NCBI GenBank assembly: GCA_031255855.1
Contig: JAIRRS010000002.1
Location: forward strand, 227 to 64,226
Reading direction: 5' to 3'
DNA from: Tannerellaceae bacterium
GTDB lineage: Bacteria > Bacteroidota > Bacteroidia > Bacteroidales > Tannerellaceae
Length of the DNA stretch: 64,000 bases
Part shown: positions 7,770-43,174 of the stretch, in pieces
Layout of the letters: every line of letters starts with the position of its first letter
Position numbering within the stretch: the first letter of the stretch is position 1
The notes under the pieces: model-generated
The model's input: the letters and a program-made list of their open reading frames with translations, nothing else
Database searches by the model: none
Told to the model about the DNA's origin: nothing
Made by a program: the position numbers and the translations under genes

Positions 7770-7787
7770 ATATTATATTTCGTACAT

Positions 7788-8684: not shown

Positions 8685-8722
8685 TTGTCTGTCTGTTTAT
8701 ATCTGATGAAATAAGATTCGTT

Positions 8723-9559
8723 TTATTTTCCGAACAATTGTTTTATTCCGTCGTATATACCCGGTATGGGCAGTGTGCCATGGGTTTCTTCAGAAAATGA
8801 ATTGCTGAAAAACCGGAGCCCTTCCGCTTGCGGCAATACGTCTGAAAAGAAATAGTTTATCCGGTTAAGATGAATATCCAACCTGTCGGGGCGCTTCCGG
8901 GAGGCAACTCCTATATAAAGACTTTTCCCTGCAAAATCTTTACCTTCTATTAATTTGGTTGCTGATTCCGATAGTTGTCCATTATCCCACCAAAGACTGG
9001 GGTCAAGAGCCAGATAGACGTCGAACGAGTCTGTATGCCGCAAAAATGTATATAAGGTGAAAAGGCCTCCATACGAATGCCCAATTAGCATATTATGCCC
9101 GTTTGTACGGTATTTGGTGCTGATCACGGCACGCAGTTCAGTGGTAAGAAATTGATAAAATGCCTCACTGCCACCACCTTCAGGTAGGGCGCCAGACGTG
9201 ATTTTCCCGTCTCTTCCCGCTGCTGAAGCCGTTGGCGTCAAATCGCGCGTGCGATCAGTATTCAGGATGCCAACGATAATACTCGGAGGAAGGTATTCCC
9301 CTTTACCCGAAGCAAGTGTTTTGCAGATGCCAACCAATGAGTGGAAAAAGGAATCTCCGTCGAGCAGATAAACCACCGGATAGGTCTGCGCAAGATTTTG
9401 TCCATAGCCTTCGGGCAGGTGTAACCAGTAGCCTCTCTCTTCCTGCAGAAGAGTTGAAAAAAGGGTATATTTTTTTCCTATGCAAATATCCTCTTGGCTC
9501 CGCAAGGTTAGCGGAGCCAAGAGGAGGAGTATAAAAAGGGTTATTTTCAAAGCGTGCAT
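8723..9559 (-). CDS. Secreted alpha/beta-hydrolase esterase, IroE/Fes-like (putative siderophore esterase)
   Basis: It has a signal peptide, YPVVYLLDGDSFFH, the nucleophile elbow GHSYGG and a C-terminal His (EETHGT). These are hallmarks of the PF00756 esterase family that includes IroE. Confidence 0.75.
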   Translation of the reverse strand: MHALKITLFILLLLAPLTLRSQEDICIGKKYTLFSTLLQEERGYWLHLPEGYGQNLAQTYPVVYLLDGDSFFHSLVGICKTLASGKGEYLPPSIIVGILNTDRTRDLTPTASAAGRDGKITSGALPEGGGSEAFYQFLTTELRAVISTKYRTNGHNMLIGHSYGGLFTLYTFLRHTDSFDVYLALDPSLWWDNGQLSESATKLIEGKDFAGKSLYIGVASRKRPDRLDIHLNRINYFFSDVLPQAEGLRFFSNSFSEETHGTLPIPGIYDGIKQLFGK

Positions 9560-9593
9560 AGTTCCTACAGCAAATAATCTATCCCGTTTCTTT

Positions 9594-11033
9594 TTATTCC
9601 GAATATGTCAATTTACCGATACCGCCAATTTGGGTAGCTTCAACGGTAAGCCCCTTTGTCGCAACCGCTGTCGCGGGGTTTATGCAATAAACGGCCGGTT
9701 GTGAATTTTCAATGGAAACGGCCACATACGCAATCCCGTTTTCAACATACGGTGTATTCCCAAATCCGGTAATACCTGAAGGCATGCCTGTAACATACGT
9801 CAGCTTCTTGTCTTCTCCTTTGTACACTGCCAACTGATTAGCCGTGTAACCTGTTTCTGTCAATGGCCTGTCATACATCAACAACAGAAAGTAATCTTCG
9901 CCTATATGCCAACTGCGAACAAATGATTTACCGCCTGACTGGTCTTCGATATTGCAATAATAGCTTTCGTCAAATTCTTCTGTCCCGGCTTTGATACGTG
10001 CTACTCCGGCAGGCAACTTGGTTTTCTGCACATCAGCAGTCATTACTTTTGCATAGCTGGGTGAAAACACATAAACATCGCCATTATCAGCCGACCAAAT
10101 CATCTGGTAATATTGTGACCGGCTACGTCCGGCGGGATAACTGATTTTGTCTGTTTTGATCAACTTGGGGTTTTGGAAGCTATCATTGCTATAAATAGCC
10201 ACCCACGCCTCGTCAGGATATTGTGTCCATTGCAATTCACCTTCTACATAGGTTCCACTACCTGTTCCGCCCGACTCTGTTTTTACCAATTCCGGATATT
10301 TTATAAATTTGCCCCCTTCCGCTTTTACGCCATATTGACTCAATCCCATTGGAATAACTCCTGAATAAATATTATTATTCACTTGCAGGATACCTGCCAA
10401 GGTAACAAATTCGCCATTACCCAAATAATTCTCGGCCGTGATTTCCTCGCTTTTACTATCATCATGCGACTCCTTGTCTACATCCAAATAAGAAAAGAGG
10501 AACCCTTTCGGCAAATAACCATTCTCGTCGGCATGTCCTTTTCCCATATCTCCGGTAGACGATGTGATAATATATTTGTTATAAATGCCATAAGAAGTAA
10601 ACCGCCGGATATCATATGTATAGTCACGTTCTTTAATTTTACCTTCCGCGTCAAGAATGTAAGATGAACTTACGCCCGCATTGCCTTGATTATATACCAA
10701 ACGATACAAATATTTGTTTTCGTAGAATATCCAGTAGGTTCCGCTTTCGGTGGTAAGACCGTTATTCGCAGCCGTAACAGAGCCTTCTCCCAATGTGTCG
10801 GCAGCCAGCAGATAATTGGCTTCGTTTACTACAGCAGCCACCACATAGGTATCTATTACTTTTGTTTCGTCGCCATTCTCATTTCCGTTCCCGTTATTAT
10901 TCCCATTATTATTCCCATTATTGTCATCTCCCTTTTTAACAGGATCGTCGTCACCGCAAGAAGTAAATACACAACATGCCAGCATCATCGCGGCAAAAGC
11001 AGTCATTAAATAATTCTTTTTCATGCACTTCAA
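9594..11033 (-). CDS. Surface lipoprotein downstream of a TonB-dependent receptor (DUF4374/XusB-like suspected)
   Basis: It has a lipoprotein signal (…VFTSC|GDDD) and a low-complexity D/N/G linker. Its size (~479 aa) and position immediately after the TBDR match the XusA-XusB arrangement. The family call rests on context and memory only. Confidence 0.6.
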
Positions 11034-11081
11034 ATTATTATGTTTATATAAATTATTGATATAAAAGAAATAAATTTCATA

Positions 11082-13481
11082 TTAGTTCCCGAAACAAACT
11101 CTCACCTTCCCGTAAAAAGCCCTGCCTGCTTTCTGTAAGCTGAAGTTGTCGTACAGTTGTTCACCGGTAAAGTTCCTACATTCAAAGGACAGGTTGTAAC
11201 GTCCGTTTTGCAACGCATACGAAACGATGAGGTTATGTGAAAATTGGCTGGGCACCACAAATTTCGATTCGCTTCCCAATGCCTCTGAATAAAGCGGAAA
11301 ACTATGCATATAGAGGTTGTCGTATGTAAACGTCAGCACATTGCCTTTCTTCCACAAATCGCGCCAGTAAAAGGTAATGTCGGAATTGGCAAACCGGTAG
11401 GGAAGGTTCGGCATACGGGCGCCGTACGTCAGGCTTTCTTGACTTGTATTGCCACCCACCGTTCTCACATTATCGCGAACATCCATCTGGGTATAATTTC
11501 CACCTACACTTACCCAATGAAAGAAACCGTACCGGACGGAAATATTATATCCTTTGGTTTTTACCTTACCATGATTTTCATACGCCGCCCCAGACTTGCC
11601 GCCGCTTAGGTCTACCAGTTTACGCCGGATATAATCTTTTGTATGCCGGTAAACCACTCCACCTTCGACATACAAGGTATGTTTACCAAACATCTCGTTA
11701 TAACTTAAATTGACGTTTACATTATCACTATTTTCGGGCTTTATCGCCAAGTCTCCTGTTTCGAGGTCTTCGTCGCCGAACATTTCTTCATTGGTAGGTA
11801 AACGGTATGCCTTTTCATAAGAAAGCTTTGCCTGCAAGCCTTTGATAACAAAATAAGTCCCTGCCGCGCCATAACCCATAGCGCTGACAGAGTTGGCGGT
11901 TCGTACAAATTTGTCCTGTGCAGATGATGTGGCAACAGGGCCTGCAATAAACTGGTTGTAATATTTCCCGAAAGCAGAGAAATTCCAGTTTTCCGAGGGC
12001 ATCAGGCGGTAAGAAAGCCCACTGATATTTTTGCGGGTCACCTTCGCGATAGCGTCGTTACCCGAATTTTCATTCAACAACGACCGGTTGGAACGGCTGA
12101 AATCATTCAACACATGATTGAAGGTAAACAGATGTGCCCCGCCCAGGCGATAATTCGTTGTAAATGTCCCGTTCCAATTGTCATTGTCCGAACGGGTATG
12201 CTGATACGACTGTTCACCGGGCATCCGGAGGCGGCGCATTTCGCCACGCCAATTGTATTCATACGTGGAAGTATCCACATTATGCGTTATGTTATTATTG
12301 TAATTGGCAGTCAATGAGACTTCCAGTCCTTTGGTAAACAGGTCTTGCCTGCGGTATTCCAACGACGGCATAAACGAATAACCCTCACGATATTTTGCAC
12401 CGAATACCACTTCTTGGCGTACTCCGGTTTGTATGTCTTTATACATGTTGGAATAGGTAAACCCCAGCATCAGCCGGTCGGCCCACTTTTTATTGACAAA
12501 CCCTATTTTAGCAACAACCGCCTCATTGTGATACGTGTCATGGAAACGTTTCACGTGTTCAATCTTATTTTTATTAATTGCTCCTGTTTGGAAATCCTTT
12601 ACAGGGGTATTTACATAATAATCGTTATCCGAATAGTTCTGGAAGGCATTGATTTCGTAAGTCAAGCCATTCTCGAATGTCTGCCCGAAATTTACATACG
12701 ACCGGTGTGTATTGAACGAACCATACGAATATGAAGCATCAAGAAACCATCTGTCAGGGCTTTTCTTTGTGATAATATTGATGACGCCACCGATGGCATC
12801 CGTCCCGAAACCGACGGGGACTACCCCTTTGTATACTTCGATACGTTCCGCATAATTGACCGGTATATTGTTCAACCCGAATGAACTACCTACACCTTCC
12901 TGCGGCACGCCATCAATAAATATTTTGATATGCTTGCCGCTAAACCCATCCATCATCAACTGCATATCGGAGCCAACACCACCGGATTCACGGAGTTTCA
13001 TTCCCGGCGCTTGCGCGAGCGCCTGGCTTAAGTTTTGCGTAGAGTTCTGAAGGGTCTTTGTATCGATGGCAATGGCATTATAGGCCGAACGTTTCAAGCG
13101 GCTTACGCCGTTCGAAACAACTACCACTTCATCCAGTTCTTCCGCTTGTGGAGAGATTGTAAGATTTTGCCTGACCCGTTCTCCGCCAACAAGGTTCACC
13201 TGTTTTTCAACTGTTTTGTAGCCAATAGCAGACACAACCAATGTGTAATCTCCTGCCGGAGCTTTCAGATAGTACATACCGTCATGGTTTGTTGCGCCAC
13301 CATGATTAGTACCTTTTAAATAGACCGTTGCAAAATCAACTAGTTCTTTTTCCGTAGACAGTATTTTACCGAAAATCACGGCTTCCCCATCTCCTCTCCC
13401 ACCTCTGCCTTGGGCCAACACACTAATAGAAAAAGAAAACAAAATAATTATCAGAGGTATATTACATTTAGTAGCTTCCAA
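11082..13481 (-). CDS. TonB-dependent receptor (CarboxypepD_reg + plug + 22-strand barrel), siderophore-type context
   Basis: The 799-aa protein has a signal peptide and the CarboxypepD_reg segment (FGKILS…YLKAPAGDYTLVVSAIGYKT). Plug motifs (DGVPQ, YKGVVPVGFGTDAIGGVINIITK) and a long beta-rich C-terminus follow. Confidence 0.9.
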   Translation of the reverse strand: MEATKCNIPLIIILFSFSISVLAQGRGGRGDGEAVIFGKILSTEKELVDFATVYLKGTNHGGATNHDGMYYLKAPAGDYTLVVSAIGYKTVEKQVNLVGGERVRQNLTISPQAEELDEVVVVSNGVSRLKRSAYNAIAIDTKTLQNSTQNLSQALAQAPGMKLRESGGVGSDMQLMMDGFSGKHIKIFIDGVPQEGVGSSFGLNNIPVNYAERIEVYKGVVPVGFGTDAIGGVINIITKKSPDRWFLDASYSYGSFNTHRSYVNFGQTFENGLTYEINAFQNYSDNDYYVNTPVKDFQTGAINKNKIEHVKRFHDTYHNEAVVAKIGFVNKKWADRLMLGFTYSNMYKDIQTGVRQEVVFGAKYREGYSFMPSLEYRRQDLFTKGLEVSLTANYNNNITHNVDTSTYEYNWRGEMRRLRMPGEQSYQHTRSDNDNWNGTFTTNYRLGGAHLFTFNHVLNDFSRSNRSLLNENSGNDAIAKVTRKNISGLSYRLMPSENWNFSAFGKYYNQFIAGPVATSSAQDKFVRTANSVSAMGYGAAGTYFVIKGLQAKLSYEKAYRLPTNEEMFGDEDLETGDLAIKPENSDNVNVNLSYNEMFGKHTLYVEGGVVYRHTKDYIRRKLVDLSGGKSGAAYENHGKVKTKGYNISVRYGFFHWVSVGGNYTQMDVRDNVRTVGGNTSQESLTYGARMPNLPYRFANSDITFYWRDLWKKGNVLTFTYDNLYMHSFPLYSEALGSESKFVVPSQFSHNLIVSYALQNGRYNLSFECRNFTGEQLYDNFSLQKAGRAFYGKVRVCFGN

Positions 13482-16400: not shown

Positions 16401-19400
16401 TTACCGATATTTCAGAATCTCTTCTATTTCATCTCTGTCCAATTTGTTTTTTTCTTTCAAGCGGTTTACTAAACGAGTGATTGCCGGTTGAGCCTTTTTT
16501 ATGATTTGGATGGTTTGTTCCAGTTCGTCTTGGAGGATTATTGAGATCCGGCCGGCTATTTTTTCGGCTAACGGGCCTTGGGTGGCTTCTTTTTTGGTCA
16601 GTATTATCAAGCCGGATTCTTCGTCCATTCCATAAGAGCAAATCATCATGCGAACCAAATGGTTGGCCTTTTGTAAATCATCGGAACAGCCTGTTGATAA
16701 GCCCTCTTTGCTACCATAGTATACCATCTCGGCAGCCCTTCCGGCTAAAAATATCCGAACACGTTTTAATAATTCATCTTTTGTTTTAAGCGTAAATATA
16801 GTTTCCTCCCTGTTTTCTTCCGTGTATCCGCCATGATTGTTCCTGGCTACTACCGTAAGGTATGAAGGGGAGCTACCGGCCAGATAGGCCATATACGCAT
16901 GTCCGGCTTCGTGCCATGCTACACGTTCGGTATGTTCCATTTCCACATCTTTCTTTGCCCCGTGTGATATAAGTTCAAAGGCTTCTTCGAGTTGATCATC
17001 GTCAAGCGGTTTTTCATTGTTTGAGGCAATTATCCAACCTTTCTTCATCACCATATCCAGATCTGCAATCGTAAATCCAAATGAACGTTCCGACAAACGT
17101 TCAAGCATATGGTCTGTAACTTGGTCATTCACCTGAAGTTTCGATTTTAAGTAATCAAACCGGTTTCTCTTATTCGGAAGACCTACAAGAATTTTCCTGT
17201 CGAAACGCCTGATTAAAGCCGGATCGAGTACATTTACGCTATCATTGCTTTCAGCCACATTGAAATTGGTAGCAGCCAACACAAATACAGGGCGTTTTAT
17301 ATCCGTTGAAAATCCATCCATTTCGGAAAGTAAGGCATTCAATGTCATCTCTTCGGCGTGGGCAGAACCATAGTTGCCTCTTGTCCTTCCTATGGCATCA
17401 ATTTCGTCGATAAATATAATAGCTGGGGCATACCGGCGTGCCCTTTTAAACAACGCCCGGATTGCTTCCGGTCCGCTTCCCTGATATTGTGTAACAAAGC
17501 TGCTAGCCGTTACATGAATAAACGCGGCATCCGATTCGCCGGCCATTGCTTTGGCAAGCAATGTTTTTCCGGTTCCGGGAGGGCCGTATAACAAAACACC
17601 CTTAGGCAGCCGGATACCGGATATCAGGCTTTTTTGCGGTTTCATTAACAGTTCGAGAAAAAATCGTAATTCTTCCTTTGCTTCCTCAGCGCCAAAAACA
17701 TCATTAAACCGTACTTTGGGCTTTATTACCTGGTCTAACACTTCACGGGTATCCCCGGCTGCCAACGCGCGATGTAAAGACAATTCACGTATGCGTATTG
17801 TAATTTCTTTTTTATCATCCGACAATTTAGGAGCTGTCTCAAATGAAAGCACTTTATGTTGTGCAGCCATTTTAGTAGCCATGTCCTGCAAATAAACCCG
17901 TGAACAAATGTGTTGTATTTGCTCGTTAAAGCTACAAAAACTGTCTTCAGGCCAAATCAATTTATCCCGTACGCCTGCACGAATAAAAGAGGCCAATAAT
18001 TCCTTCTCAATTATCAATTGGTCTTTACCTAACAGGTATACGGGCATTTCCGGCAGGTTATCATGTAATTTCTTCAAGAACCTCCGGCAGGTTTTCAATG
18101 CATTTGCCGTAATAATCACCGGGCCTGACAAACCAATCGTCCCCTCATCATATTCTTTTTCTACCAAAAGTTCAAGCAGGACAAAGCTGATGTTCCTATT
18201 TTCAATAATTTTCAATGCCTCATTGTCATCTTGCTCATGATGGATGATAACGCCGTCTGATTTTGCCTTTAATACTCCGGCAGACAAGATGTTCCCCAAA
18301 AATAATATTTCAGGCGTCTCCGGATTTTCGAACAATGTCTTCACTTCAGGATGTATCGGATCTTTTGCCACTTCAAAACGGATTTTCTCCAGTTTTTTCA
18401 GATTTGTCACTGCACGATCTTCCCAATGCCTGTATAATTCAAAGATCTCTTTTTTCAGGAATTGTTCGGTTTGTGCCCGCAATGCGCGGGCATCTGTCTG
18501 TCCTCCTTCGGCAAAAATCAGGATAGGAGCAAGCAAACCATCCTCTGTAATTTCAATCTTATATTGCTTCTTGAATAAATCGGCGAAACGCTTAAATTCT
18601 CCTACACTTACCTGCTCTAAATCGTAAACTTGCAGATGGTTGAACATCATAAGATAACCGGTAGCCAAACGCGAACAAATCGCAGCCGGAAAAAAAGGTT
18701 TGTTTGTTTGAGGATTGATATCTGTTTCCAACGCATTCAGGATCGTTTGCCGGGGTAGCCCGGCCGTATTCAGCCTATATTCTCCTTCATAGAGTTGCTT
18801 TCCCGCATTTGTTGTGAATATAATAATCGTATCTTTAAAGGAAACTTTATTATCCAGAAAATCATCCTGCAATGATCCGGCATCCAGGATTTGCAGGAAT
18901 AGTTGTATCGTGTTTAAATGCGCTTTTTCAACTTCGTCAAAAAACAAAATACAATGTGGATTCTGTTTTACAAATCCGGTGAGTTGCCCTACTTGCCCAG
19001 TGTGTTTAAAACCTATCAACCCTAGATGTGCCTGATGGTCGGAAAAGCTACTCATATCAAAACGTTTATAGGGTATGTTCAACGTTCGCGAACCTTGTTC
19101 GGCCAAGAATGTTTTTCCCACGCCCGGAGGGCCTGCAAACACAAATATTCCCCGGGGACGGTTTTGCTCCCGTCCGGTTGCCGCCAATACTTCCGAATTA
19201 AAGATTCCCTCAGCAAAAGCATGTACAACATGATTCTGCCCATACACTTGTCTGAGTAAGGATTCCCTTAAACTCCGGATACGTTTTGTAAGCAACACCA
19301 AAAAAAAACGTCCCAAATCAAATGTGTTTTTCAAAATAGGCGTAGGTTCATACAATAATATCGACAAAACGTTGATTGCCGTTGTCATGTTATCCTCCGA

Positions 19401-19730
19401 GTATTGCCTTGCCTTATGCAACAACCGCTCAACTGCCCGGAAACCCTCTATGGAATCTTTCTCGATAGACAAAGCATTCCTCAATTTCAATCGTCCTTTT
19501 CCCGGATTAATCTCCATGTCCCGTAATAGATCCGATACTTGTTTGATTTCTTCATTCGTTTGCTTTGCATACCGTGAATTAGGCATCGCACTCTCTGCCG
19601 TGACTTCCGCCAGTTTGAGTAATCCTAAAAAGATATGTTCGGGAGAAATGTCTTCAACGCCTAATGCTTCCATTTCACATTCGGCTCGCTTAAGGACAAA
19701 TTCCATTGCCCGGCTCAATTCTTGTCCCAT
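16401..19730 (-). CDS. Membrane-less multi-domain AAA protease: Clp_N – ClpB-D2-like AAA – receiver-like domain – FtsH-type AAA – M41 zinc peptidase
   Basis: Residues 1-140 are Clp_N-like repeats (ISPEHIFLGLL; AINVLSILL). Residues ~155-375 are AAA_2 (VYGQNHVV, GPPGVGKTF, ILFFDEVEKAH, IIIFTTN). Residues ~473-595 are REC-like. Residues ~675-865 are the FtsH AAA (LLYGPPGTGKTLLAKA, IIFIDEIDAIG, LDPALIRRFDRK). Residues ~930-1100 are M41, with HEAGH at 16899-16913 and SDDLQKA. No hydrophobic TM segment is seen anywhere. Confidence 0.85.
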   Translation of the reverse strand: MGQELSRAMEFVLKRAECEMEALGVEDISPEHIFLGLLKLAEVTAESAMPNSRYAKQTNEEIKQVSDLLRDMEINPGKGRLKLRNALSIEKDSIEGFRAVERLLHKARQYSEDNMTTAINVLSILLYEPTPILKNTFDLGRFFLVLLTKRIRSLRESLLRQVYGQNHVVHAFAEGIFNSEVLAATGREQNRPRGIFVFAGPPGVGKTFLAEQGSRTLNIPYKRFDMSSFSDHQAHLGLIGFKHTGQVGQLTGFVKQNPHCILFFDEVEKAHLNTIQLFLQILDAGSLQDDFLDNKVSFKDTIIIFTTNAGKQLYEGEYRLNTAGLPRQTILNALETDINPQTNKPFFPAAICSRLATGYLMMFNHLQVYDLEQVSVGEFKRFADLFKKQYKIEITEDGLLAPILIFAEGGQTDARALRAQTEQFLKKEIFELYRHWEDRAVTNLKKLEKIRFEVAKDPIHPEVKTLFENPETPEILFLGNILSAGVLKAKSDGVIIHHEQDDNEALKIIENRNISFVLLELLVEKEYDEGTIGLSGPVIITANALKTCRRFLKKLHDNLPEMPVYLLGKDQLIIEKELLASFIRAGVRDKLIWPEDSFCSFNEQIQHICSRVYLQDMATKMAAQHKVLSFETAPKLSDDKKEITIRIRELSLHRALAAGDTREVLDQVIKPKVRFNDVFGAEEAKEELRFFLELLMKPQKSLISGIRLPKGVLLYGPPGTGKTLLAKAMAGESDAAFIHVTASSFVTQYQGSGPEAIRALFKRARRYAPAIIFIDEIDAIGRTRGNYGSAHAEEMTLNALLSEMDGFSTDIKRPVFVLAATNFNVAESNDSVNVLDPALIRRFDRKILVGLPNKRNRFDYLKSKLQVNDQVTDHMLERLSERSFGFTIADLDMVMKKGWIIASNNEKPLDDDQLEEAFELISHGAKKDVEMEHTERVAWHEAGHAYMAYLAGSSPSYLTVVARNNHGGYTEENREETIFTLKTKDELLKRVRIFLAGRAAEMVYYGSKEGLSTGCSDDLQKANHLVRMMICSYGMDEESGLIILTKKEATQGPLAEKIAGRISIILQDELEQTIQIIKKAQPAITRLVNRLKEKNKLDRDEIEEILKYR

Positions 19731-19736
19731 ACCGTA

Positions 19737-22700
19737 TCATTTTTTTATTAGTTTTGCTTTTACTCCTTCCGGGTGTAGCCAGCCATAGCCATTCTGCTGA
19801 AGTTTTTTTATCAGGTCGTCGAAATCATCGTCTGTCCAACTTGGGTATGTTTTCAAAAACACGTCCAAATAAGGGCGGGCTCCTTCATCCCAATCCTTCC
19901 AGCCGGGAAATTCATACTGGTAATCTATCTGCAAAAGGTGGGGCGTGTCTTTCCCTCCATCTCCATAAGTTGAAAATGTAACCGCATAATTTCCATAAGG
20001 ATATATGGCTATACGATCCCCTTCCGTATGCAACATGGATATGTTCTTTCCGGTATATGTATCCCACACATAGACTTTGCCGCGGGTAGTGGAAAGCGCA
20101 AAACGTTCATTCGGGAGAAATTGCACATCCGTCGGTATGATATTGATGATTTCGTCAAATTCCCTAACTATCTGCAAGGTGCTCAAATCCATCAGTATAA
20201 TCTTATTCAAAAAACCCATTAACAATTTCGTACGATCATGATTGATACCCATGCAACAAACATCTTTATGGAGCGTATGTTTTACTTTCCCACGGTCTAC
20301 ATCCCATAACAGAACTTCCGCATAAAGTCTGTAGAAATGGGTAGACATCGTGATTACGGATGTTCTGTCCGAACCAAAATAAGCGCTCCTTATTTCATGG
20401 TTGTGGGTAAGTGTACGGATGCATTTTTGTTTTTTTATATCCCATATCTTAACCGTTTTGTCTTCACTGCCCGACAAGAGATATTTATCATCCAAACTAA
20501 CGTCTAATGCAGTAATGGGAGACTTATGACATTTATCGAACGAAAACAAATAGTTGCCGGTGAAAGCATCGAATACCTTTATCGGTTCGGTATATAAATT
20601 TACGGCAAAAAGGAGTTTTTTGTCGGGACTCACTGTAAACAGGTTTACAGCTCCTTCTATCCGGCAAATACTCTTTTCGTTTACAATATCATACAAGTGC
20701 CCATCGGCAATGGTCTTGCAATCGGCCGTCACCAAATGATTAACTGCAACCTCTCTGGCTGCCCTTTTTTCAGTAAAAGTCCGGAGGCCCTTGATCCGGC
20801 AATACTTCCCGAGTTCGGCATTCAACTCTACATACGAAGATAAATTCACGACATAAGGGATTGTATCTATCTCTTCTATCAGGTCTAATGCTTTCTGTAT
20901 TTCTCTGTTTTTAAGATTTTTATTGATTTTTTCTTTTATCATATGAAAATGAGACTCATGCTCCAAACTCTCTTTCGCGCTAATAATGTGGGTTAACGAC
21001 CAATTAATAACGGAATAGTTTTTTCGGGGAAGGAATGGAAAACACATCAATGACTTGTTTCCGGTTTTCTCCATAAGGTATATAGGGTATGTCGTAACAA
21101 AGAAATATTCATTGGAAGAATGGAAAGCAAATGCTTTAAAGAGGCCGCTATAATAAGATATTTTGCTTTGTCCGGTTTGCATGTCCATTAATTTCGAAAT
21201 TAATGATAGTATATAAACATGGCGGTTATCCGGGCAAAAATGCATGTTCGTTCCAAAACCTTTATCATAAGAAGATACCAGCCTGCCAGAAGATACATCC
21301 AACAACCAGAATTCTCCCGTGTTGAAATTCACTCCTGCCATATCGTCGTTAAAAGTGAAATGGAGCGCTTCAACAGAAGATTCACAGGCCCTGTCCCATA
21401 TCAGATTACCATTAGCCGTATCAAATAATTTTATCCTTTTATTCTTATTTCCTGTAACGAAATAGTTTTTATTATTACTGAAACAGGCGGCCGACACTTC
21501 TTCTTCATCAATCGTTATGGTCTGAATACGTTTTCCTTCAACTGTGTCCCATTTGATTAATTTCCCCGACCGGGCATCATCTTCCCAAACCAAAGCCCAC
21601 ACTTGTTCGTTATCCGGACTGAAACAGGCGGTTTTCGGTTTGTCGTTTGCCAATAAGTCGTCTGTAAATGTCCGGACGCATCGTCCCTCTTCCGCAAGCC
21701 ACAGGCAAATGGCGTTGCCGCTGATGTTGTTCATGAAGTCTACCTTCTCCTTAATCATATACGTTTCAATAAACTTATCCATCAAAACATCTTTGTCGAT
21801 ACCCGGTATATTTTTGTACATTGAAACATACAGGTCGTTAACAAAATACTTGGCTATATTTTTCATATTTAATACAGGAGGAATGGTTTTCAATACGCTT
21901 TTTTTATTGCCTATTGCGTTATGGGTTAATACATATTTACCGTCATGACTGATGCAAAAGGCCGACGACTGGATTTTCGGCCATGCATGTTTGTATATTA
22001 ATTGTGCTTTATCGGGCACGTCTCTGAATGAATAATTGATTTTCCATTTTTCAACTCCTATTCTCGAACAGGCTATGATTGCAGATTCTTCTTCCATCCA
22101 TTGCAACAACTCGGCATAATGGAGCTCTTCAGACAATGTTACGCCGGGTTTGGGAACTTTAACGTCGCATCCATGTCGTTCGAGAAATTCCATCAACACG
22201 ATGTAATTTTTATACGTCAAATGGTTCTTGAAAACATTTGTCATTTTACTATCCATTATCATGCCCAGTTCACTGTAATTGTAATTTTCCATACAAAAAT
22301 TAGCAAACAACCAGGCTGCATGATGGTCATATTGATGTTCCCGGTACATGTTTTTCACCATATTCAGCGCTTTCTCGTCATCTATCCTGGCATTCCGCCA
22401 AAGATAAACGGCATAATTGAATACGGCATCGGGGTGGTTCGGGTCAATAACGATTGCCCTTTCCCAGCATTTTTCAGCCTCTTCAGGCATTTTCATATCC
22501 AGATACGAAAGCGCTTTATTGTTTAAACTACCCGCGCTCTCGCCGGCAGCTTTTGGTTGCAAACGAAGGTATAGGCGTCCTGTTATCCCGTGATAAATAT
22601 CCTGCAATTCTTTTTCTATGGCTTCGAATCCGGGACGTAGCTGTTCGTCTTCCAAAAAACAGTGGTCGAAAAGGTCTTGTATCTTGTGGCGTATGTCTAT

Positions 22701-23468
22701 CCGCGGGGTTTTTGCATATTCTTTCCATTTATGTCCTAAGTTTTTTCCGTCTTTCCATTCCGGGGGGCGTTTCCCGATAAACATTTCAAGCAATGTGGCC
22801 GCCCAGTTCCATACGTCCGATTTGTCTGTAAGTTTCTTTTGAGGGTTTGCTTGTTCGGAAGAACGATAAGCTAATGTATAGGTCTCTTTACGGGCTTTTG
22901 AAATCCCGAAATCGGCTATCTTTACTGTGCCTTCTTTCGAAAGTAATATATTGGAAGGTTTAATGTCGCGATGTAATATTGTTTGGTGGGCATACTGCAA
23001 ACCACGAGCCATTTGAATAGCTATGTCCAAAAATCGTTCTATTATTTCCTCTTCGTCGCCTTCATAGAGCGGCCCTTTGCCTTCGCCTATAAAGTCCTTT
23101 AGGTTACCCCCGTCCATCCATTCGGAAAATATAGAAAGGATTCCGTCCGTATCACGTACATAATAGCAGGATACGATATGCGGATGAAGGCCGAGGTCTA
23201 TCCAGGTTTTACACTCATCGAGGAATTGCTCCTTGTATTCTTCTCCTTCAAGAATGGATTGTTTCATAGCCAGGTCTACATTCCATCTCTTGTGGTGTAC
23301 GCGGAATACTTGCCCCATATGCCCTTTAAAAGGGCCTTCTTTTATTTCGTACATGTTGAGGAATGTATCCCCTATCTTGATACCGGAAGAAGAGGCCTTG
23401 TGCAGCGCATTGTCTGTCGACGTTATTTCCCCCAGATTGAATTTCGTTTTATCTTCATTGTTTTCCAT
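19737..23468 (-). CDS. Ser/Thr protein kinase – TPR – two WD40 beta-propellers (1243 aa)
   Basis: The kinase core spans residues ~38-295 with VDLAMK (Lys68), HRDIKPSNILL, DFG and DVWNWAATLLEM. A TPR-like segment (EEAEKCWERAIVIDPNHPDAVFNYAVY) follows. WD40 signatures occur in two blocks, for example LLSGSEDKTVKIWD. There is no P-loop and no TM segment. Confidence 0.85.
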   Translation of the reverse strand: MENNEDKTKFNLGEITSTDNALHKASSSGIKIGDTFLNMYEIKEGPFKGHMGQVFRVHHKRWNVDLAMKQSILEGEEYKEQFLDECKTWIDLGLHPHIVSCYYVRDTDGILSIFSEWMDGGNLKDFIGEGKGPLYEGDEEEIIERFLDIAIQMARGLQYAHQTILHRDIKPSNILLSKEGTVKIADFGISKARKETYTLAYRSSEQANPQKKLTDKSDVWNWAATLLEMFIGKRPPEWKDGKNLGHKWKEYAKTPRIDIRHKIQDLFDHCFLEDEQLRPGFEAIEKELQDIYHGITGRLYLRLQPKAAGESAGSLNNKALSYLDMKMPEEAEKCWERAIVIDPNHPDAVFNYAVYLWRNARIDDEKALNMVKNMYREHQYDHHAAWLFANFCMENYNYSELGMIMDSKMTNVFKNHLTYKNYIVLMEFLERHGCDVKVPKPGVTLSEELHYAELLQWMEEESAIIACSRIGVEKWKINYSFRDVPDKAQLIYKHAWPKIQSSAFCISHDGKYVLTHNAIGNKKSVLKTIPPVLNMKNIAKYFVNDLYVSMYKNIPGIDKDVLMDKFIETYMIKEKVDFMNNISGNAICLWLAEEGRCVRTFTDDLLANDKPKTACFSPDNEQVWALVWEDDARSGKLIKWDTVEGKRIQTITIDEEEVSAACFSNNKNYFVTGNKNKRIKLFDTANGNLIWDRACESSVEALHFTFNDDMAGVNFNTGEFWLLDVSSGRLVSSYDKGFGTNMHFCPDNRHVYILSLISKLMDMQTGQSKISYYSGLFKAFAFHSSNEYFFVTTYPIYLMEKTGNKSLMCFPFLPRKNYSVINWSLTHIISAKESLEHESHFHMIKEKINKNLKNREIQKALDLIEEIDTIPYVVNLSSYVELNAELGKYCRIKGLRTFTEKRAAREVAVNHLVTADCKTIADGHLYDIVNEKSICRIEGAVNLFTVSPDKKLLFAVNLYTEPIKVFDAFTGNYLFSFDKCHKSPITALDVSLDDKYLLSGSEDKTVKIWDIKKQKCIRTLTHNHEIRSAYFGSDRTSVITMSTHFYRLYAEVLLWDVDRGKVKHTLHKDVCCMGINHDRTKLLMGFLNKIILMDLSTLQIVREFDEIINIIPTDVQFLPNERFALSTTRGKVYVWDTYTGKNISMLHTEGDRIAIYPYGNYAVTFSTYGDGGKDTPHLLQIDYQYEFPGWKDWDEGARPYLDVFLKTYPSWTDDDFDDLIKKLQQNGYGWLHPEGVKAKLIKK

Positions 23469-23487
23469 TTCAAAACCTGTGATTAGT

Positions 23488-24252
23488 TCATGGTACTTTA
23501 TCCGCCCAAATGAGAGCCATTTCCTTGGCTTCTCTTAAATAAGATCTGTGATCGAATGTATCTTTTATTTTTTTGATGATTATCTTCCGGTTACTCTCTA
23601 TGGCGCTAACATCTATTCCTAATATATTGCTCATTTCTTTATTGGAATAACCTTCGCCCAATAATTTAACGACGTCATTCTCACGGCAAGTAAACCAGAA
23701 TCCGGGTTTGTCGCGCTGTAGGATTACCTTACTCTTGCCACAATGAGGTATTCCGTCGGACATCGCAATGTCTATGCCTCTGCTAATTTCCATTATCGGC
23801 GAATTCTTGGAAACATGGCCTATTCCCAATTCTGCCAAAAGCCTTATCGGATACCAATGGGTATATCCGGAGTAAACTAATATCTTCATATCGGGATACA
23901 AGCCTTTCATCTCTTTACAAAAGTCTATCCCATTGCCTTCCGGTATTTTGTACAATCTTCTTACCTCCTCTACCGGCATAGGGATGAATTTTTCTTTTTT
24001 CTCCTTCCGTATAATATCCATCTCTATCCCGTTCGTGTCGCTGATATCAAGCAACAAAACATCGGGCAGTTTATATCCTTTCAATAAATCACTTGCCAAC
24101 TTCCTTCTACATTCTTTTAAAGAATCGGAACGTCCAACGACCTCCGCAAAACGTGAATCCTCGATATGTTTTTCTACCTCATCAGCAATCATTATGTGGC
24201 GATCGGCAAGGTAGACTCGTATTTTGTCTTCATTGGCTGCCTCTTTTTTCAT
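23488..24252 (-). CDS. NarL/LuxR-family response regulator with an atypical receiver (about 30-aa loop duplication)
   Basis: The receiver has IRVYLAD…, DVLLLDISD (putative acceptor Asp69), KILVYSGY and HVSKNS. The C-terminal LuxR HTH reads NDVVKLLGEGYSNKEMSNILGIDVSAIESNRKIIIKKI. The segment TNGIEMDI… recurs as MP…GNGIDFCKEM…. Confidence 0.75.
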   Translation of the reverse strand: MKKEAANEDKIRVYLADRHIMIADEVEKHIEDSRFAEVVGRSDSLKECRRKLASDLLKGYKLPDVLLLDISDTNGIEMDIIRKEKKEKFIPMPVEEVRRLYKIPEGNGIDFCKEMKGLYPDMKILVYSGYTHWYPIRLLAELGIGHVSKNSPIMEISRGIDIAMSDGIPHCGKSKVILQRDKPGFWFTCRENDVVKLLGEGYSNKEMSNILGIDVSAIESNRKIIIKKIKDTFDHRSYLREAKEMALIWADKVP

Positions 24253-24881
24253 ACGTCCGTTATTTTTTGCGGGTCTTCTATTTCTATACTTATTTCCGTT
24301 TCCAATCCCGGCGTCGAATGGATTATCATCCGTCCGTCCAAAGCCTCCACACAGGTACTGATATTGGCCAGTCCTTTTCCTATGCCTACATGGTCGGGAT
24401 CGAAGCCTATGCCATCGTCGCGTACCGTAACCGACAGGAAATCGTCATCTACCGTCAATTGTACCCATATTTTCTCCGGGTTCCCATGTTGCACGGCATT
24501 GTCTATTAATTCACGCGTGCACCGATAAATAATCACTACCAAACGGTTATTCAATGACGGTTGTATTCCATATGAACTGAAATACGTCTTCGGAATCATC
24601 TCGCAATAATCTTTTACGGCGTATTTCAACCCCATGGATAATAAAGAAGCAACCGGTTCCAAATCGGCATCCGATTTCGTAAGCCACGAATCGTGTACCT
24701 CCATCCCTTTTGTAAATGCCTTAACATCCTCGCCATCTACAATTGATAACGTCTTCATTTTACCAATCACCCTTTTCTGAACCACGTTTGCCTCCTTCAT
24801 TGGCCAGGCTTTTGCAGATTGGCTTACTTGTTCCTGTTTTCCAACAGATTTGTCTCTTTGTTCCATACTCCAGGTTCTCAT
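24249..24881 (-). CDS. Sensor-less NarL-class (HisKA_3-type) histidine kinase core, cytoplasmic
   Basis: It has a possible H-box EVHDSW, the N-box YRCTRELIDNAVQHG, G1 RDDGIGFD and G2 GIGKGLANISTCVEALDGRMIIHSTPG. Only about 60 residues precede the H-box, with no TM or PAS domain. There is a 4-nt overlap with the response-regulator gene. Confidence 0.65.
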   Translation of the reverse strand: MRTWSMEQRDKSVGKQEQVSQSAKAWPMKEANVVQKRVIGKMKTLSIVDGEDVKAFTKGMEVHDSWLTKSDADLEPVASLLSMGLKYAVKDYCEMIPKTYFSSYGIQPSLNNRLVVIIYRCTRELIDNAVQHGNPEKIWVQLTVDDDFLSVTVRDDGIGFDPDHVGIGKGLANISTCVEALDGRMIIHSTPGLETEISIEIEDPQKITDV

Positions 24882-24893
24882 ATCTTATCTTAC

Positions 24894-24901
24894 AAATATA
24901 A
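24894..24901 (-). promoter_or_regulatory. Candidate Bacteroidetes -7 box (TAtaTTTG) upstream of the HK gene
   Basis: Plus-strand CAAATATA equals minus-strand TATATTTG, matching the TAnnTTTG consensus. It lies 13 nt upstream of the start at 24881. Confidence 0.3.
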
Positions 24902-24922: not shown

Positions 24923-25462
24923 CTATAACCTATGCTTAATCTTGTCGTTTTTATTATTATCCGGTTCCGCCGCCGGTTTCCGGTATTGTATTTCAATTCG
25001 TCCGTCTTTATACCTGTTTATCATTACCTTGTCAATAGCGGCGGCCTCGGTGCGATATTCATCTTCATTGGGTGTAAATCCTTTCGGGATAAGAAAGACG
25101 TACAGTGTTTCCGCCTGGCTGTCGTTGCCTCCCGTAACAAACCTACAAACGAACTTTCCCGAATCATTCACCGGGACTGAAGGGTAAGCAGCGTATGGTT
25201 TTGGCCCCCATATCCGTCCGCCGCGTTCTACCTGGAGCGACATCGTGATCTTGTAATCGCCATATCTCCCTACGCCATCTGTTAATTCTATACGGCCGAA
25301 CACCGTACCGCCCTTACCTATAGCAGGTACAGAGTCTATTTTCAATTGTACTACCCCTTGCGCCATTACCTTGCTACACAAGCATAATACCGACAATACA
25401 AAAAAGAGAGAGATTCTTTTTCTCAGGCCAATCCTTTTTTTAACTACTTTCATGGTTTTCAT
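24923..25462 (-). CDS. Small secreted hypothetical protein
   Basis: The 179-aa protein has a basic N-terminus, a hydrophobic signal (ISLFFVLSVLCLCSKVMAQG) and a beta-rich body. I recognise no motif in it. Confidence 0.6.
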   Translation of the reverse strand: MKTMKVVKKRIGLRKRISLFFVLSVLCLCSKVMAQGVVQLKIDSVPAIGKGGTVFGRIELTDGVGRYGDYKITMSLQVERGGRIWGPKPYAAYPSVPVNDSGKFVCRFVTGGNDSQAETLYVFLIPKGFTPNEDEYRTEAAAIDKVMINRYKDGRIEIQYRKPAAEPDNNKNDKIKHRL

Positions 25463-27393: not shown

Positions 27394-30300
27394 TTAACGA
27401 TGATTCGCTTGCCTGAACTGCTGAGGAGTTACCCCGGTGTGTTTTTTAAAACAACGGGTAAAATATGCCGGATTTGAAAATCCCAAACTATATGCTACTT
27501 CCGAAATTGTCAACTGATGTTTCTGCCGAAACAGAGTCATGGCATGATTCATCTTAACAGACAAGATATAATCATTCGGAGTCATACCTGTAATATGTTT
27601 GATCCGGTTGAAAAGCTGTGTTCGTCCTATCCCTAAATACCTGCTCCAACGTGTTGTGTCAAAATCTACATTTTCAAAATTGACTTCTATTACGCGGATC
27701 GCTTGCTCCAGGAAAGCCTGGTCGTGCAAATTAGTCGTCATCTCGGCCGAAGATGTTTCTCCGGTCGATTGATTATTCGATTGGTTAAGCAATCGTTTCT
27801 GATTCCTTACCAGCCGGTTGCACCGCAAATAAAGAATATTGGCATTAAACGGTTTCACAATATACTCGTCGGCGCCTGCCTGAATCACCTCAATATATTG
27901 TTTTTCAGAAGGATTAGATGACATCAAAATTACCGGAATATGCAATGTCCTTATATTCGATTTTATCATCTTACATAATTCTATCCCGGATATTCCGGAA
28001 ACGGATGTTTCCGCGATAATCAGATCCGGAATGCTGTCCGCGGCATCTTTATAACCCTCTTCCCCATTATCTTTAATTGATATATTGTATAAAGGTGAAA
28101 AGATTGTGGTGAAAAGCGTCAGCATTTCATCATTATAATCAATTAACAACAAACGGTATTTTTTATTCTGATCGTGAGTATTGTCTTCTACTCCCAACAT
28201 ATCCTCTTCTATAAATTCTTCCGTAAAAAACGGCGCCTTTTCTGTAGATTCAGCCAATATAGATAGTTCATCGTCATTAAAATGTTTCTCACCCAGTCTT
28301 AAACGGACATAAATTGTAATGACATTATCTTCTGTTTCAACAAATAATTCTCCTCTATGCAATTCAATGATTCGTTTTGCCAATACCAGCCCGATACGGT
28401 TTCCGGAAACCGAACGGATATCTGCCGGCAAATCCGCGCTATTCAATGTTTCCAGCAAACGATTCAGCATTATTTTGTTCGGGTCATTCGTATAGCAAGC
28501 AATCGTGGTCTCAAGCCAGCCCGATTTCTTCAAAAATACAACCGAGACTTTTCCCCTCGGATCAATGAGCTGGAACGCCGCGGGTAATAAATTATAAAAC
28601 ACTTTTTGCATCTGTATCCTATCGAACCAAAGCATAATAGTCTCGGCATACTGCTTAGGGTATACGAACGATTTACCTTGAGCATAAACAGCGAATGAAA
28701 GACATACTTCCTGTATGAAATCGGGAAACGAAAAACTATTTACCCTCAAACTTAATTTATTCAATCCCGTTTGGTGCAAATCCAGAAATTCAGTAATTAC
28801 ATTCTGAAGAAAATAAGCCTGTTTACGTATCTGCATAATCTTCGATTTCCTCAGACCGGAAAATTCCTGCAATAAACTATACGAAATAGATATGATCAAT
28901 GTCAACGGCGTCCTGAATGCATTGGATATGCTGGTGAAAAAATCAATCTGATTGCGGTTTATCTCTTCCATGCGATCGATTTCCCGCCGTTCTATTTCCA
29001 ATGAGGCCTGTAATTCCGCTTTTCCTTTATAAAAAAGCCAGAAAATACGTAATAGCACAGTCACAATAATAATATATAGCAGGAAAGCCGGCCAGGAAAA
29101 CCAAAAAGGTGACTTGATCTTTACATTCAACATGATTTTCTTGTCGGGATTGGTCGTTTCTTGAATAACCAACTGATAATTACCCGGTCTCAGTGAAGAA
29201 TAAGTAATTGTTTTATGTTCCGTATAATTCCAGAAGTTGTCCAACCCTTCCAGTTTATACCGGTAGCGGGTATGATAGGCCGGTATATAATTGGATGTGG
29301 CGAATATAAAATTCAATGTGTTTTGGTCATATGGCAGCACCAATTCTTTTAAATCAACTACATTCTTCTGCCGGTAAGGCTTATTATTGACCAACAAAGA
29401 GGAAAGATAAAACGAATAAGTATTATTAAGCACATGCATTTCCCGTTCATTAAATGAGAGCATGCCATATAAGCCGCCTACATAGATATCACTTGTTTGT
29501 GATGAAACAAATAATCCACAATCTTCGCCGATTTCCAAAATCGGATACGAACCATTTAACAAGACATGCCGGGATGAATCAATGGTTTTCTGCGCCGAAA
29601 TATTCAATAAAGTTATCCCCTGGCTGGATGTTACTACTAAGTTTCCACCGGATGTTAATGCCAGGTTGTAACATATATCATTTAACAACCAGTTGTCTTT
29701 TACCGAAAAGACACGGAAAGAGTCAATTTCGGCAATATAGTTTAACAAGCCCGATTTGGAAGTGGCAAAAAACAATCCCTGTTTCGAATCGCCACAAATA
29801 GAAACGATTGCGCTTGGCAACTTTCCCCGGCCTCCCGACCCGATATTATACGAACGGATTAACTTCTCCTCCGACAAATCGACGGTAAAAAGCCCATCCT
29901 TCAATGTCGAAACCCATAATACATTACAATCATCAATATGGATCGTGCGTATAAATCCGGAACATAATTTCCTTAATCCGGCTTCCCGGAAAAGGCCGGA
30001 TATTTCCTGTGTATTCCGATTCATCTGATAAATGCCATCCTGAGTCAGCAATATCAACTTATTGCGATAAGGTATGATTTTCTCAACAATTTTTTTCAAT
30101 CGGGAATCCAACGTATCACTCCGGATAGATCCGGTTTTTCCCGTATTCACATCCAGATAATACAGGCCTTCCATATACACGCTGATATACAATTTATTAT
30201 ATTCTTCATCAAACCATAAAGCACGAATTTTATCATTGGGCAACTGACCGGACGCTGCTTTGAGATGCCGGACCGTTCCCGTTTTTTTATTGATAATATT

Positions 30301-31425: not shown

Positions 31426-31599
31426 ACCTTATAAAATCGTACGGTAAACGATTCTATACCGTTAAAAATAAGATTATGGCATCTATGAATCAATCCCGTC
31501 TTTTACATTTGTTAATAAACAAAAAGAAAAAGGAAAATACATTTTCATTCAAAAATGAGATTATATATTGAAATTAATTATTAAAAAAATCATCAAATT

Positions 31600-35028: not shown

Positions 35029-35067
35029 ATGTGGTTGATTATTGTGAAATATAAATTAAAACAGAAT

Positions 35068-37097: not shown

Positions 37098-37171
37098 TAG
37101 CGCGACCCAGGATTGAACTGGGGACCTCATGATTATGAATCATGCGCTCTAACCGGCTGAGCTATCGCGCC
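37098..37171 (-). tRNA. tRNA with CAT anticodon (elongator Met, or Ile2 if lysidine-modified)
   Basis: The minus strand reads GGCGCGA TA GCTC AGCCGGTTA GAGC G CATGA TTCATAA TCATG AGGTC CCCAG TTCAATC CTGGG TCGCGCT A. This folds into a complete 74-nt cloverleaf with a G1·U72 wobble and no encoded CCA. It lacks the three G-C pairs in the anticodon stem that mark initiator tRNA. Confidence 0.9.
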
Positions 37172-43153: not shown

Positions 43154-43174
43154 ATTTATTTTTCCTTTCTTTAT

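Follow-up and report, generated by a model that had tools for sequence, protein, structure and literature searches.

Results

The gene cluster

Four genes lie side by side on the minus strand of a 64-kb window (the whole 64,000-nucleotide stretch of contig JAIRRS010000002.1, from a Tannerellaceae bacterium, that was analysed). They encode a 210-aa GHKL (HATPase_c) ATPase (24249-24881), a 254-aa regulator with an atypical receiver and a putative LuxR/GerE helix-turn-helix (HTH) domain (23488-24252), a 1243-aa Hanks-type Ser/Thr kinase (19737-23468) and a 1109-aa AAA+ zinc protease (16401-19730). According to the coordinates of the open reading frames (ORFs), the ATPase and regulator genes overlap by 4 nt (24249-24252), and the two subsequent junctions are gaps of 19 nt (23469-23487) and 6 nt (19731-19736), exactly the frames and the packing described in an original prediction made from the letters of this DNA. 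The cluster is a real and conserved module that is, apparently, undescribed. All features of the four genes discussed below are on the minus strand.

Direct reading of the sequence places a candidate Bacteroidetes -7 promoter box of the form TAnnTTTG (TATATTTG) at 24900-24893 on the minus strand (i.e., positions 24893-24900), 12 nt ahead of the ATG of the GHKL gene. The original prediction had noticed the same box and given it as 24894-24901, so that its presence stands while its coordinates shift by one base. Because the motif is frequent, occurring 27 times on the minus strand of the window, the box is weak and merely suggestive evidence for a promoter.

A soluble protease with two AAA modules

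The protease is composed, from its N-terminus, of a Clp_N domain, an AAA_2 module resembling the D2 ring of ClpB, a receiver fold, an FtsH-type AAA domain and an M41 peptidase. Four of the five domain calls originally made for this protein passed their tests, and these include the two that carried the most risk, Clp_N and the receiver (REC).

The Clp_N-like domain (aa 1-140; 19311-19730) is marginal in a single-sequence Pfam search (E = 0.024). A profile built from 21 family sequences over the same residues and compared with PDB sequences recovered essentially Clp N-domains only, the best being the N-domain of ClpC (6emw_F, E = 1.7e-6). The AlphaFold2 (AF2) model of this region has a predicted local distance difference test (pLDDT) value of 93, and its top 50 Foldseek matches are almost all N-domains of ClpC, ClpB or ClpA, with TM-scores of 0.55-0.69; profile and fold together bear out the call. 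In the family alignment, the Glu-His motif of the first repeat (E31 in 'PEH') is nearly invariant, and the second repeat has no such motif.

The module that follows (aa 149-440; 18411-19286) matches AAA_2 with 106 bits at residues 192-341, and positions 446-685 of the NCBIfam ClpA model, which constitute its D2 part, align to residues 149-398. This first AAA ring has a Walker A motif at 200-207 and a Walker B motif at D265/E266. The protease has no Pfam or NCBIfam match to D1, AAA_lid_9 or ClpB_D2-small, the D2-type module being its only Clp-type ring.

Although Pfam has no match for residues 438-668, a receiver fold occupies about aa 470-600 (17931-18323) and is followed by a beta-rich linker that extends to about aa 660. 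The family profile of this middle region matches REC chains (2qxy, E = 4e-4), and the AF2 model (pLDDT 81) returns receiver domains for nearly all of its top 50 Foldseek matches, among them RssB, PhoP and LuxO, with TM-scores of about 0.7 when normalised by target length and with RssB at the top, as the earlier call of a receiver in this position had implied. Since Glu stands at the acceptor position in the window (VLLELL), and D, E, N or K across the family, we regard the domain as a pseudo-receiver. Lacking a conserved acceptor Asp, this built-in receiver is probably either independent of phosphorylation or regulated on other residues.

The C-terminal part (aa 667-1105; 16416-17732) contains the FtsH-type AAA domain (167.7 bits, residues 712-850) and Peptidase_M41 (94.3 bits, residues 930-1105). 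The NCBIfam FtsH model TIGR01241 scores 352.1 bits against a cutoff of 600, and its alignment is confined to residues 667-1102. The second ring has its Walker A at 716-723, its Walker B at D775/E776 and a YQG pore loop at 749-751; the peptidase has HEAGH at 940-944 and a third zinc-ligand position, D1018, that is invariant across the family alignment, in agreement with the M41 and FtsH-AAA assignments. There is no transmembrane-like segment anywhere in the protein (the highest 19-residue Kyte-Doolittle mean is 1.17), and the protease is therefore membrane-less, as first proposed.

The protease family and its neighbours

More than 100 full-length homologues of the protease, with 48-65% identity, come from Tannerella and other Tannerellaceae, Dysgonamonadaceae, Prolixibacteraceae, several Bacillota, Deferribacteraceae and Spirochaetaceae. 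Where databases name them, the names go no further than 'AAA family ATPase', 'FtsH' or 'ATP-dependent Zn protease'. The middle domain specific to the family is found in 279 of 1.84 billion representatives clustered at 50% identity.

Gene contexts were sampled by exact look-ups and by scanning metagenomes with the first 670 aa of the protease, and the fetched loci or contigs of homologues are referred to by L-numbers. Of 71 distinct homologous loci, the 43 with at least 4 kb upstream were used to count partners within five genes. Canonical ftsH loci of at least 14 kb (n = 56), processed by the same pipeline, served as a control; they derive from a contig scan whose pattern, PGTGKT[LM]LA, matched every canonical FtsH, all 80 listed loci being ordinary ftsH. 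A Ser/Thr kinase is present within five genes of the protease in 30 of the 43 family loci and in 1 of the 56 controls (Fisher p = 4.5e-14), and in 23 family loci there is such a kinase of at least 800 aa. Kinases with an FHA domain occur in 13/43 loci and PP2C phosphatases likewise in 13/43, against 0/56 controls in both cases; Hsp70-like proteins accompany the protease in six loci (1/56 in the control) and a separate Clp_N-like protein does so in 17. Overall, 35 of the 43 have a partner of at least one of these types.

In about 10% of the family (15-16 of 150 representatives), kinase and protease are fused into a single polypeptide, with an N-terminal Pkinase domain (accompanied by TPR) followed by AAA_2, receiver, FtsH-AAA and M41; Clp_N is not detectable in these fusions. 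Such fusions are classic evidence that two proteins act together, and the kinase and the protease are very probably functionally coupled.

The order GHKL, REC-LuxR, Ser/Thr kinase-WD40, protease recurs in two related lineages (L174 with L001, and L175 with L088). The two clusters looked up around GHKL relatives consist of a homologue of the 179-aa protein encoded upstream of the window cluster (see below), a gene for 88 or 89 aa, the GHKL gene, the REC-LuxR gene (with a 4-nt overlap) and one to three kinase-WD40 genes. L174 and L175 are linked to the contigs with the protease indirectly: L174 and L001, which come from sister samples, share genes for proteins of 1321 and 771 aa, and L175 and L088 are contigs of one sample. 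Identities to the window proteins in these relatives are 53-57% for GHKL, 43-48% for REC-LuxR and 65% for the protease. L174, like the window, has an M28 peptidase upstream, and these loci therefore seem to be chromosomal orthologues. GHKL and REC-LuxR are the immediate upstream neighbours of the protease in L100 and L107, with no intervening kinase. With the four-gene order conserved, and the pairing of kinase and protease both conserved and sometimes sealed by fusion, accidental adjacency is not borne out. Downstream of the protease, the closest relatives have EF-Ts and S2 on the opposite strand; in others, this place is taken by ArgRS, DegV or aromatic amino-acid genes.

A kinase with a variable sensor region

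The kinase comprises a catalytic head, a TPR or helical region, two consecutive beta-propellers and a conserved C-terminal tail. Its catalytic domain (aa 48-284; 22617-23327) matches Pkinase with 121.7 bits (cutoff 31.7). K69, HRD (166-168) and DFG (186-188) are all retained, with a degenerate Gly-rich loop and no canonical APE; by these motifs, the protein is an active-looking Hanks-type kinase. The TPR and two-propeller architecture proposed for it is recovered by a TPR_1 match at residues 314-345 and by WD40 or propeller matches at 585-730 and 924-1164.

The sensor region formed by these repeats (about aa 314-1164; 19977-22529) is hypervariable. Relative to the L174 and L175 orthologues, identity is 59-62% over residues 1-300 and 53-66% over the last 58 residues, and falls to 17-23% over residues 301-1185; for comparison, the adjacent protease is 65% identical to its relatives. 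A constant head and tail enclosing hypervariable repeats is the pattern that would be expected of a receptor tracking a fast-evolving ligand.

Beyond the last propeller, the tail of some 60 residues (aa 1186-1243; 19740-19913) conserves the motif EFPGWxDWDEGARPYLexFLxxhPxWtdeDFnxLixeLQnrGYGWLRPEGV. Pfam contains no family matching it even at E ≤ 10, nor does it have families for the PN proteins, the 179-aa ORF or the other recurrent unknowns of these loci. Tail-like segments are encoded by ORFs in 32 of the fetched loci, and the tail could be a docking or adaptor element. A search started from the tail returned short fragments alone, and the two that were looked up adjoin a giant kinase or a vWA/radical-SAM cluster: the neighbours of the short tail-like ORFs are a vWA gene with a radical-SAM/SPASM cluster in one case and a kinase-WD40 giant of 2575 aa in the other (L179:614-8385, L176:1780-10091). 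These cases hint at a part for the tail and the propeller kinases in further multi-gene systems.

The GHKL ATPase and the atypical receiver-LuxR regulator

The 210-aa protein has a HATPase_c domain (50.5 bits, residues 118-202) with all its boxes, namely N128 (N box), DDGIG at 155-159 (G1) and GKGLAN at 168-173 (G2), and it carries no sensor domain. Its N-terminal 132 aa have no match to a Pfam family of the HisKA group even at E ≤ 10, HisKA_3 included, and no phospho-acceptor His is conserved among five homologues, H63 of the window protein being Q, Q, D and N in four relatives. Because no His is conserved, the protein is to be regarded as a GHKL ATPase and not as a demonstrable histidine kinase. 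It is also rare, with 4 relatives among 5.8 billion proteins.

Its partner scores 21.9 bits for Response_reg (Pfam cutoff 30.2) and 21.2 bits for GerE at residues 187-230 (cutoff 23.5), and the NCBIfam MctR model aligns to residues 103-230 with 57 bits (cutoff 300). The regulator retains D69 and the S/T and K positions, has a single N-terminal acidic residue and carries an insert of about 40 aa after beta-3; its acceptor position is E in L100 and L107 and G in L006. From these features it would be a pseudo- or atypical receiver joined to a LuxR HTH. The 4-nt overlap of the two genes is kept in all five loci. The original prediction had called the two proteins a phosphorelay pair, which cannot be sustained when H63 is replaced in every relative and the acceptor Asp is Glu in two of them; a canonical His-Asp phosphorelay is rejected for lack of a conserved His.

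Surroundings of the cluster

The upstream neighbour of the cluster (24923-25462, minus strand) encodes a 179-aa secreted or lipoprotein-like protein whose N-terminus resembles a signal peptide or lipoprotein signal (maximal 19-residue hydropathy mean 1.96). Its homologues are directly upstream of the cluster in L174 (E = 3.5e-60) and L175 (E = 5e-56), and the gene has a TAnnTTTG box of its own at 25503-25496. Although its product is extracytoplasmic and its membership is uncertain, the gene may share a transcript with the cluster or have a functional link to it.

Downstream of the protease, on the same strand, is a bona fide ClpB gene (NCBIfam TIGR03346, 1317 bits, cutoff 1232). As the alignment begins at residue 22-27 of the ORF, the true ATG is near 16275, about 125 nt beyond the protease stop, which is the distance first given; nor was any terminator-like site or hairpin found on the minus strand of this gap, in keeping with what had been read there. 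The link is, however, not conserved, since relatives carry EF-Ts/S2 in this position instead, and clpB was rejected as a component of the system.

The G+C content of the cluster (0.4167) is that of the window (0.4168), contrary to the earlier impression that the cluster is AT-richer than its flanks, and an origin as a foreign island is rejected as far as base composition is concerned.

EF-Ts (275 aa) and ribosomal protein S2 (283 aa) are encoded in the window at 42326-44026 (minus), some 18 kb from the cluster. In L001 and L088, the closest relatives, EF-Ts/S2-family genes of equal sizes are immediately downstream of the protease, and the difference in position suggests a rearrangement between related genomes. 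At 27394-36942, a hybrid two-component regulator of 1343 aa (Reg_prop/Y_Y_Y, REC, AraC HTH) adjoins a SusC-like/SusD-like pair, an arrangement typical of polysaccharide utilisation loci in Bacteroidales. The SusC/SusD genes, the hybrid regulator and the TAnnTTTG motif together indicate Bacteroidales. The run at 4268-13481 (minus), just downstream of clpB, encodes a TonB-dependent receptor, a DUF4374 protein, an esterase, a ferric-reductase-like membrane protein and two ABC exporter-type proteins, and looks like a siderophore or iron-uptake cluster. A tRNA at 37098-37171 (minus) is the sole Rfam match in the window.

Variants and other inputs in related loci

The Clp_N-like domain is modular within the family: it occurs fused to the protease, on an upstream protein of its own (about 340 aa), or as a part of polytopic membrane proteins. 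Many kinase-protease loci have genes for proteins sharing the domain (L097:6372-8096, L104:5770-7263, L003:4120-6333, L090:8281-9804, L002:1110-3533). The sequences of those at L097 and L104 show, in addition, a Pro-rich or low-complexity linker and a polytopic membrane domain, so that these two are membrane-tethered Clp_N proteins. The protease of one subfamily has no fused N-domain, and the protein of about 340 aa is encoded directly upstream (L149:1089-2111, L172:4714-5730, L141:8487-9536 and about 10 other loci). It contains a Clp_N-like domain and a domain with a degenerate 'LLICAPQ' motif; the latter may be an inactive D1 remnant, and the whole protein a split N-terminal part.

In three distinct loci (L109:2930-9944, L105:2609-9535, L131), the protease is the last gene of a Ter-type biosynthetic operon containing TerD, a TIM-barrel C-C lyase, PRTase_2/TRSP, StiP-PELOTA, ATPgrasp_Ter and HAD genes, which connects the protease family with the stress-response genes of the Ter set. 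Elsewhere, large atypical Hsp70-like proteins of 650-880 aa (L002:4541-9846, L090:1-3391, L143, L160, L170), in which the nucleotide-binding domain alone (residues 8-374) is recognisable, sometimes replace the kinases. The protease thus looks like a common output device of several input modules, among which kinases are dominant.

Discussion

On balance, we consider it probable that the cluster belongs to a conserved, horizontally spread cytoplasmic module in which a sensor Hanks-type Ser/Thr kinase is coupled to a soluble hybrid AAA+ zinc protease. Most likely, the module carries out cytoplasmic proteolysis under the control of a sensor kinase, possibly in stress or conflict. The TPR and beta-propeller region of the kinase would bind a protein or peptide ligand, and the activated kinase would phosphorylate the protease, its pseudo-receiver, or an adaptor or substrate. 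Phosphorylation would then switch on or redirect processive unfolding by the stacked ClpB-D2-like and FtsH-type rings, such that the unfolded substrate would be degraded in the M41 chamber, with the Clp_N domain acting as a docking site for substrates or adaptors. In the Bacteroidales lineage, the translationally coupled pair of GHKL ATPase and atypical receiver-LuxR regulator may add a transcriptional or regulatory arm, one that would work without canonical His-to-Asp transfer. We infer the direction of signalling, the roles of the domains, the substrates and the biological role, and we hold the direction and the details with moderate confidence.

If a sensor is hypervariable, its ligand may be a fast-evolving or foreign protein, as the pattern of conservation in the kinase suggests, and a response to stress or conflict (i.e., to phages or toxins) would then be the most likely role. 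Taken further, the family could represent an undescribed class of signal-gated proteolysis, in which a receptor-like kinase with a diversifying sensor directly switches a soluble double-ring protease, in effect an innate-immune-like or stress-responsive 'sense and destroy' device, with Hsp70-like proteins, a Ter-type metabolite pathway, the GHKL/pseudo-receiver pair and membrane-tethered Clp_N proteins as inputs that plug into the same protease. We put this wider view forward tentatively, as a possibility that we would not yet bet on. If true, it would provide a bacterial counterpart of receptor-kinase-triggered proteolysis, with a Hanks-type kinase hard-wired, and even fused, to a processive protease, as well as a candidate conflict system that is absent from PADLOC-DB v2.0.0. 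The kinase-protease fusions and the minimal loci with GHKL, REC and protease offer simple entry points for biochemistry.

Several observations weigh against a kinase-gated module with a role in conflict. The synteny counts rest on crude ORF calling and on seed-based phmmer labels, and co-transcription of the four genes is a prediction from their spacing. About 30% of the protease loci have no kinase nearby, some of them coming after a Ter-type biosynthetic module, so the protease evidently can serve other inputs. The pore-loop Tyr of the D2-type module ('SYK' or 'SYQ' in most relatives) has been lost from the clade of the window protein through a deletion of three residues (GFKHT---GQVG in P0001-P0004; protease aa ~238-247, window 18990-19020, minus), with Walker A and B intact; threading of substrate by the first ring may therefore be absent in this lineage. 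The plasmids of PLSDB, the phages of INPHARED and IMG/VR yielded no family member; the matches there are to generic Clp ATPases alone (28-42% identity), cover no more than about half of the 670-aa query and centre on residues 148-460. The surroundings of the cluster are ordinary, consisting of a polysaccharide utilisation locus, a TonB receptor, clpB and ribosomal genes, and the window has no defence island, integrase or restriction-modification genes. Nor does PADLOC-DB v2.0.0 contain a system-level match for the cluster, a result that agrees with the original prediction, which could name no described system of this composition. Given the missing match and the ordinary context, a role in defence is merely suggested by the hypervariable sensor and the patchy spread of the family.

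How phosphorylation would reach the protease is the point on which the first of the alternatives differs. The original prediction offered a phospho-degron model, in which the kinase would mark target proteins, Clp_N would read the mark as the N-domain of ClpC reads the phospho-arginine written by McsB, and the marked proteins would be degraded. The homology and the fold of Clp_N are now confirmed, the Glu-His motif of its first repeat is nearly invariant, and genes for FHA proteins, which read phosphothreonine, and for PP2C, which erases it, are frequent partners, so that phosphorylation appears central to the system. McsB, however, is an arginine kinase with a guanidino-phosphotransferase fold and not a Hanks-type kinase; the cluster contains no kinase of the McsB type, and the kinase that it does contain is of a different class. 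The N-domain of ClpC uses pockets in both repeats, whereas here the second has no Glu-His motif, and one subfamily carries the N-domain on separate proteins of about 340 aa or on polytopic membrane proteins. Since the fusions contain no detectable Clp_N, control of the protease in cis fits better than the reading of a tag, and we consider the phospho-degron improbable. A dedicated anti-phage abortive-infection system, in which the propellers and TPR would sense a phage protein and the protease would act as a toxic effector on host or phage proteins, is a more serious competitor, although we judge it rather unlikely. It would accommodate the hypervariable sensor between a conserved head and tail, the one to three kinase paralogues in related loci, the patchy occurrence of the family across four phyla at about 50% identity, the domain-level likeness of the kinase to PD-T4-6 and to mad6 of MADS, and the Ter-type modules that adjoin some family members, such modules being linked to phage and stress resistance. 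It sits poorly with the lack of a system-level match in PADLOC, with the absence of a defence-island context in the window and the sampled loci, of mobile-element genes adjacent to the cluster in the window and of the family from plasmid, phage and IMG/VR collections, and with a locus that is orthologous and chromosomal in related genomes, where the upstream M28 peptidase and 179-aa gene are shared.

Two further explanations would each reduce part of the cluster to a bystander or to housekeeping. If the GHKL protein and the regulator were a canonical two-component system, with a histidine kinase and a LuxR-type regulator controlling the operon, then the Ser/Thr kinase and the protease would be mere neighbours. 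The N, G1 and G2 boxes of HATPase_c, the D69, S/T and K residues and putative GerE HTH of the regulator, and a 4-nt overlap typical of histidine kinase and response regulator genes are all what such a system would possess; but the histidine kinase-like protein has neither a conserved His nor a HisKA or HisKA_3 match, the acceptor of the regulator is E in L100 and L107 and G in L006, and the link between kinase and protease has independent support from the fusions. Moreover, the pair is found only beside this protease family, all four of its database relatives (looked up or matched to contigs) being in such clusters, and of all the explanations this is the one we find hardest to credit. General protein quality control, with the adjacent clpB as a heat-shock disaggregase working alongside a soluble FtsH-like protease, is also most improbable. 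It would account for a same-strand clpB gene some 125 nt beyond the protease, with a gap free of terminator-like sites, and for Hsp70-like genes accompanying the protease in 6/43 loci. But the adjacency of clpB is not conserved among relatives, the dominant partners of the protease are signalling proteins and not chaperones, and the associated Hsp70-like proteins are atypical in their size (650-880 aa) and in having only a recognisable nucleotide-binding domain.

Comparison with known systems

Full-text literature searches yielded no description of the protease or of the system, and one may exist in subscription journals or in the literature on Ter systems. Resemblances to catalogued defence systems are confined to single domains. 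In PADLOC, the AAA modules match IetA, TRIP13 and DolB, and the kinase domain matches mad6, PD-T4-6 and MkoA; the 210-aa GHKL protein has no match and the 254-aa regulator has marginal ones only. The corresponding NCBIfam equivalogs remain below their cutoffs (IteA, 118 against 510; MAD6, 103 against 460). The window kinase resembles those of MADS (MAD6, E = 6.9e-45) and PD-T4-6 (E = 3.6e-30) at the level of the domain, and relatives of the cluster share the logic of a kinase/PP2C switch with the TerY-P triad. But the partner genes that define PD-T4-6, MADS MAD6, the TerY-P triad and BREX PglW are absent here, and the partner is an AAA+ protease.

The nearest description that these searches found is of something different, the FtsH-containing MoxR-vWA ternary conflict systems, a prediction from comparative genomics (Kaur, Burroughs, Iyer & Aravind 2020, PMC7159879). 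They consist of MoxR, vWA and a protein whose two AAA domains are both of the FtsH type, with an inactive first domain. Those systems likewise pair an AAA+ protein of the FtsH clade with beta-propeller or ClpN-containing partners. However, no Clp-D2 ring, receiver or kinase partner is described for them, and the text never mentions M41. The first AAA module of the window protease is of the Clp-D2 type with intact Walker A and B, in contrast to their inactive first AAA domain, and MoxR or vWA genes are not found beside the window cluster or the sampled loci.

Among well-characterised proteases, FtsH is matched by the C-terminal 440 aa, an AAA module and M41 peptidase of its type, which share with it Walker A and B, the aromatic-x-Gly of pore loop 1, the arginine fingers, HEXXH and the third-ligand Asp. 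FtsH-family proteases are membrane enzymes, and FtsH itself has two transmembrane helices flanking a periplasmic domain; the window protease has neither transmembrane nor periplasmic segments and adds some 660 N-terminal residues comprising Clp_N, the ClpB-D2-type ring and the receiver fold. A soluble branch of the FtsH family with an extra Clp-type ring, a Clp_N domain and a receiver fold would be new both in its architecture and in the control logic that it implies.

The added segments have their own parallels. With ClpC/McsB and with ClpA and ClpB, the protease has in common an N-domain with the double-repeat fold of Clp_N and a D2-type AAA_2 module, and McsB and ClpC offer a further parallel in the genetic linkage between a kinase and an AAA+ machine for degradation. 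Unlike the Hsp100 proteins, the protease lacks a D1 ring, an M-domain and a ClpP partner, with proteolysis built in through M41; the cluster contains no ClpP or McsB-like gene, its kinase is of the Hanks type where McsB is an arginine kinase, and only the first repeat of its Clp_N domain keeps the Glu-His motif. In RssB and CpdR, which are adaptors of ClpXP, a receiver fold is tied to the control of an AAA+ protease, as it may be in the window protein, where the receiver differs in being placed inside the protease polypeptide, between the AAA rings, and in having no conserved acceptor Asp. The system is thus of a recognisable kind, regulated AAA+ proteolysis joined to Hanks-kinase signalling, with its parallels in FtsH, in ClpC/McsB and in the control of ClpXP by RssB and CpdR.

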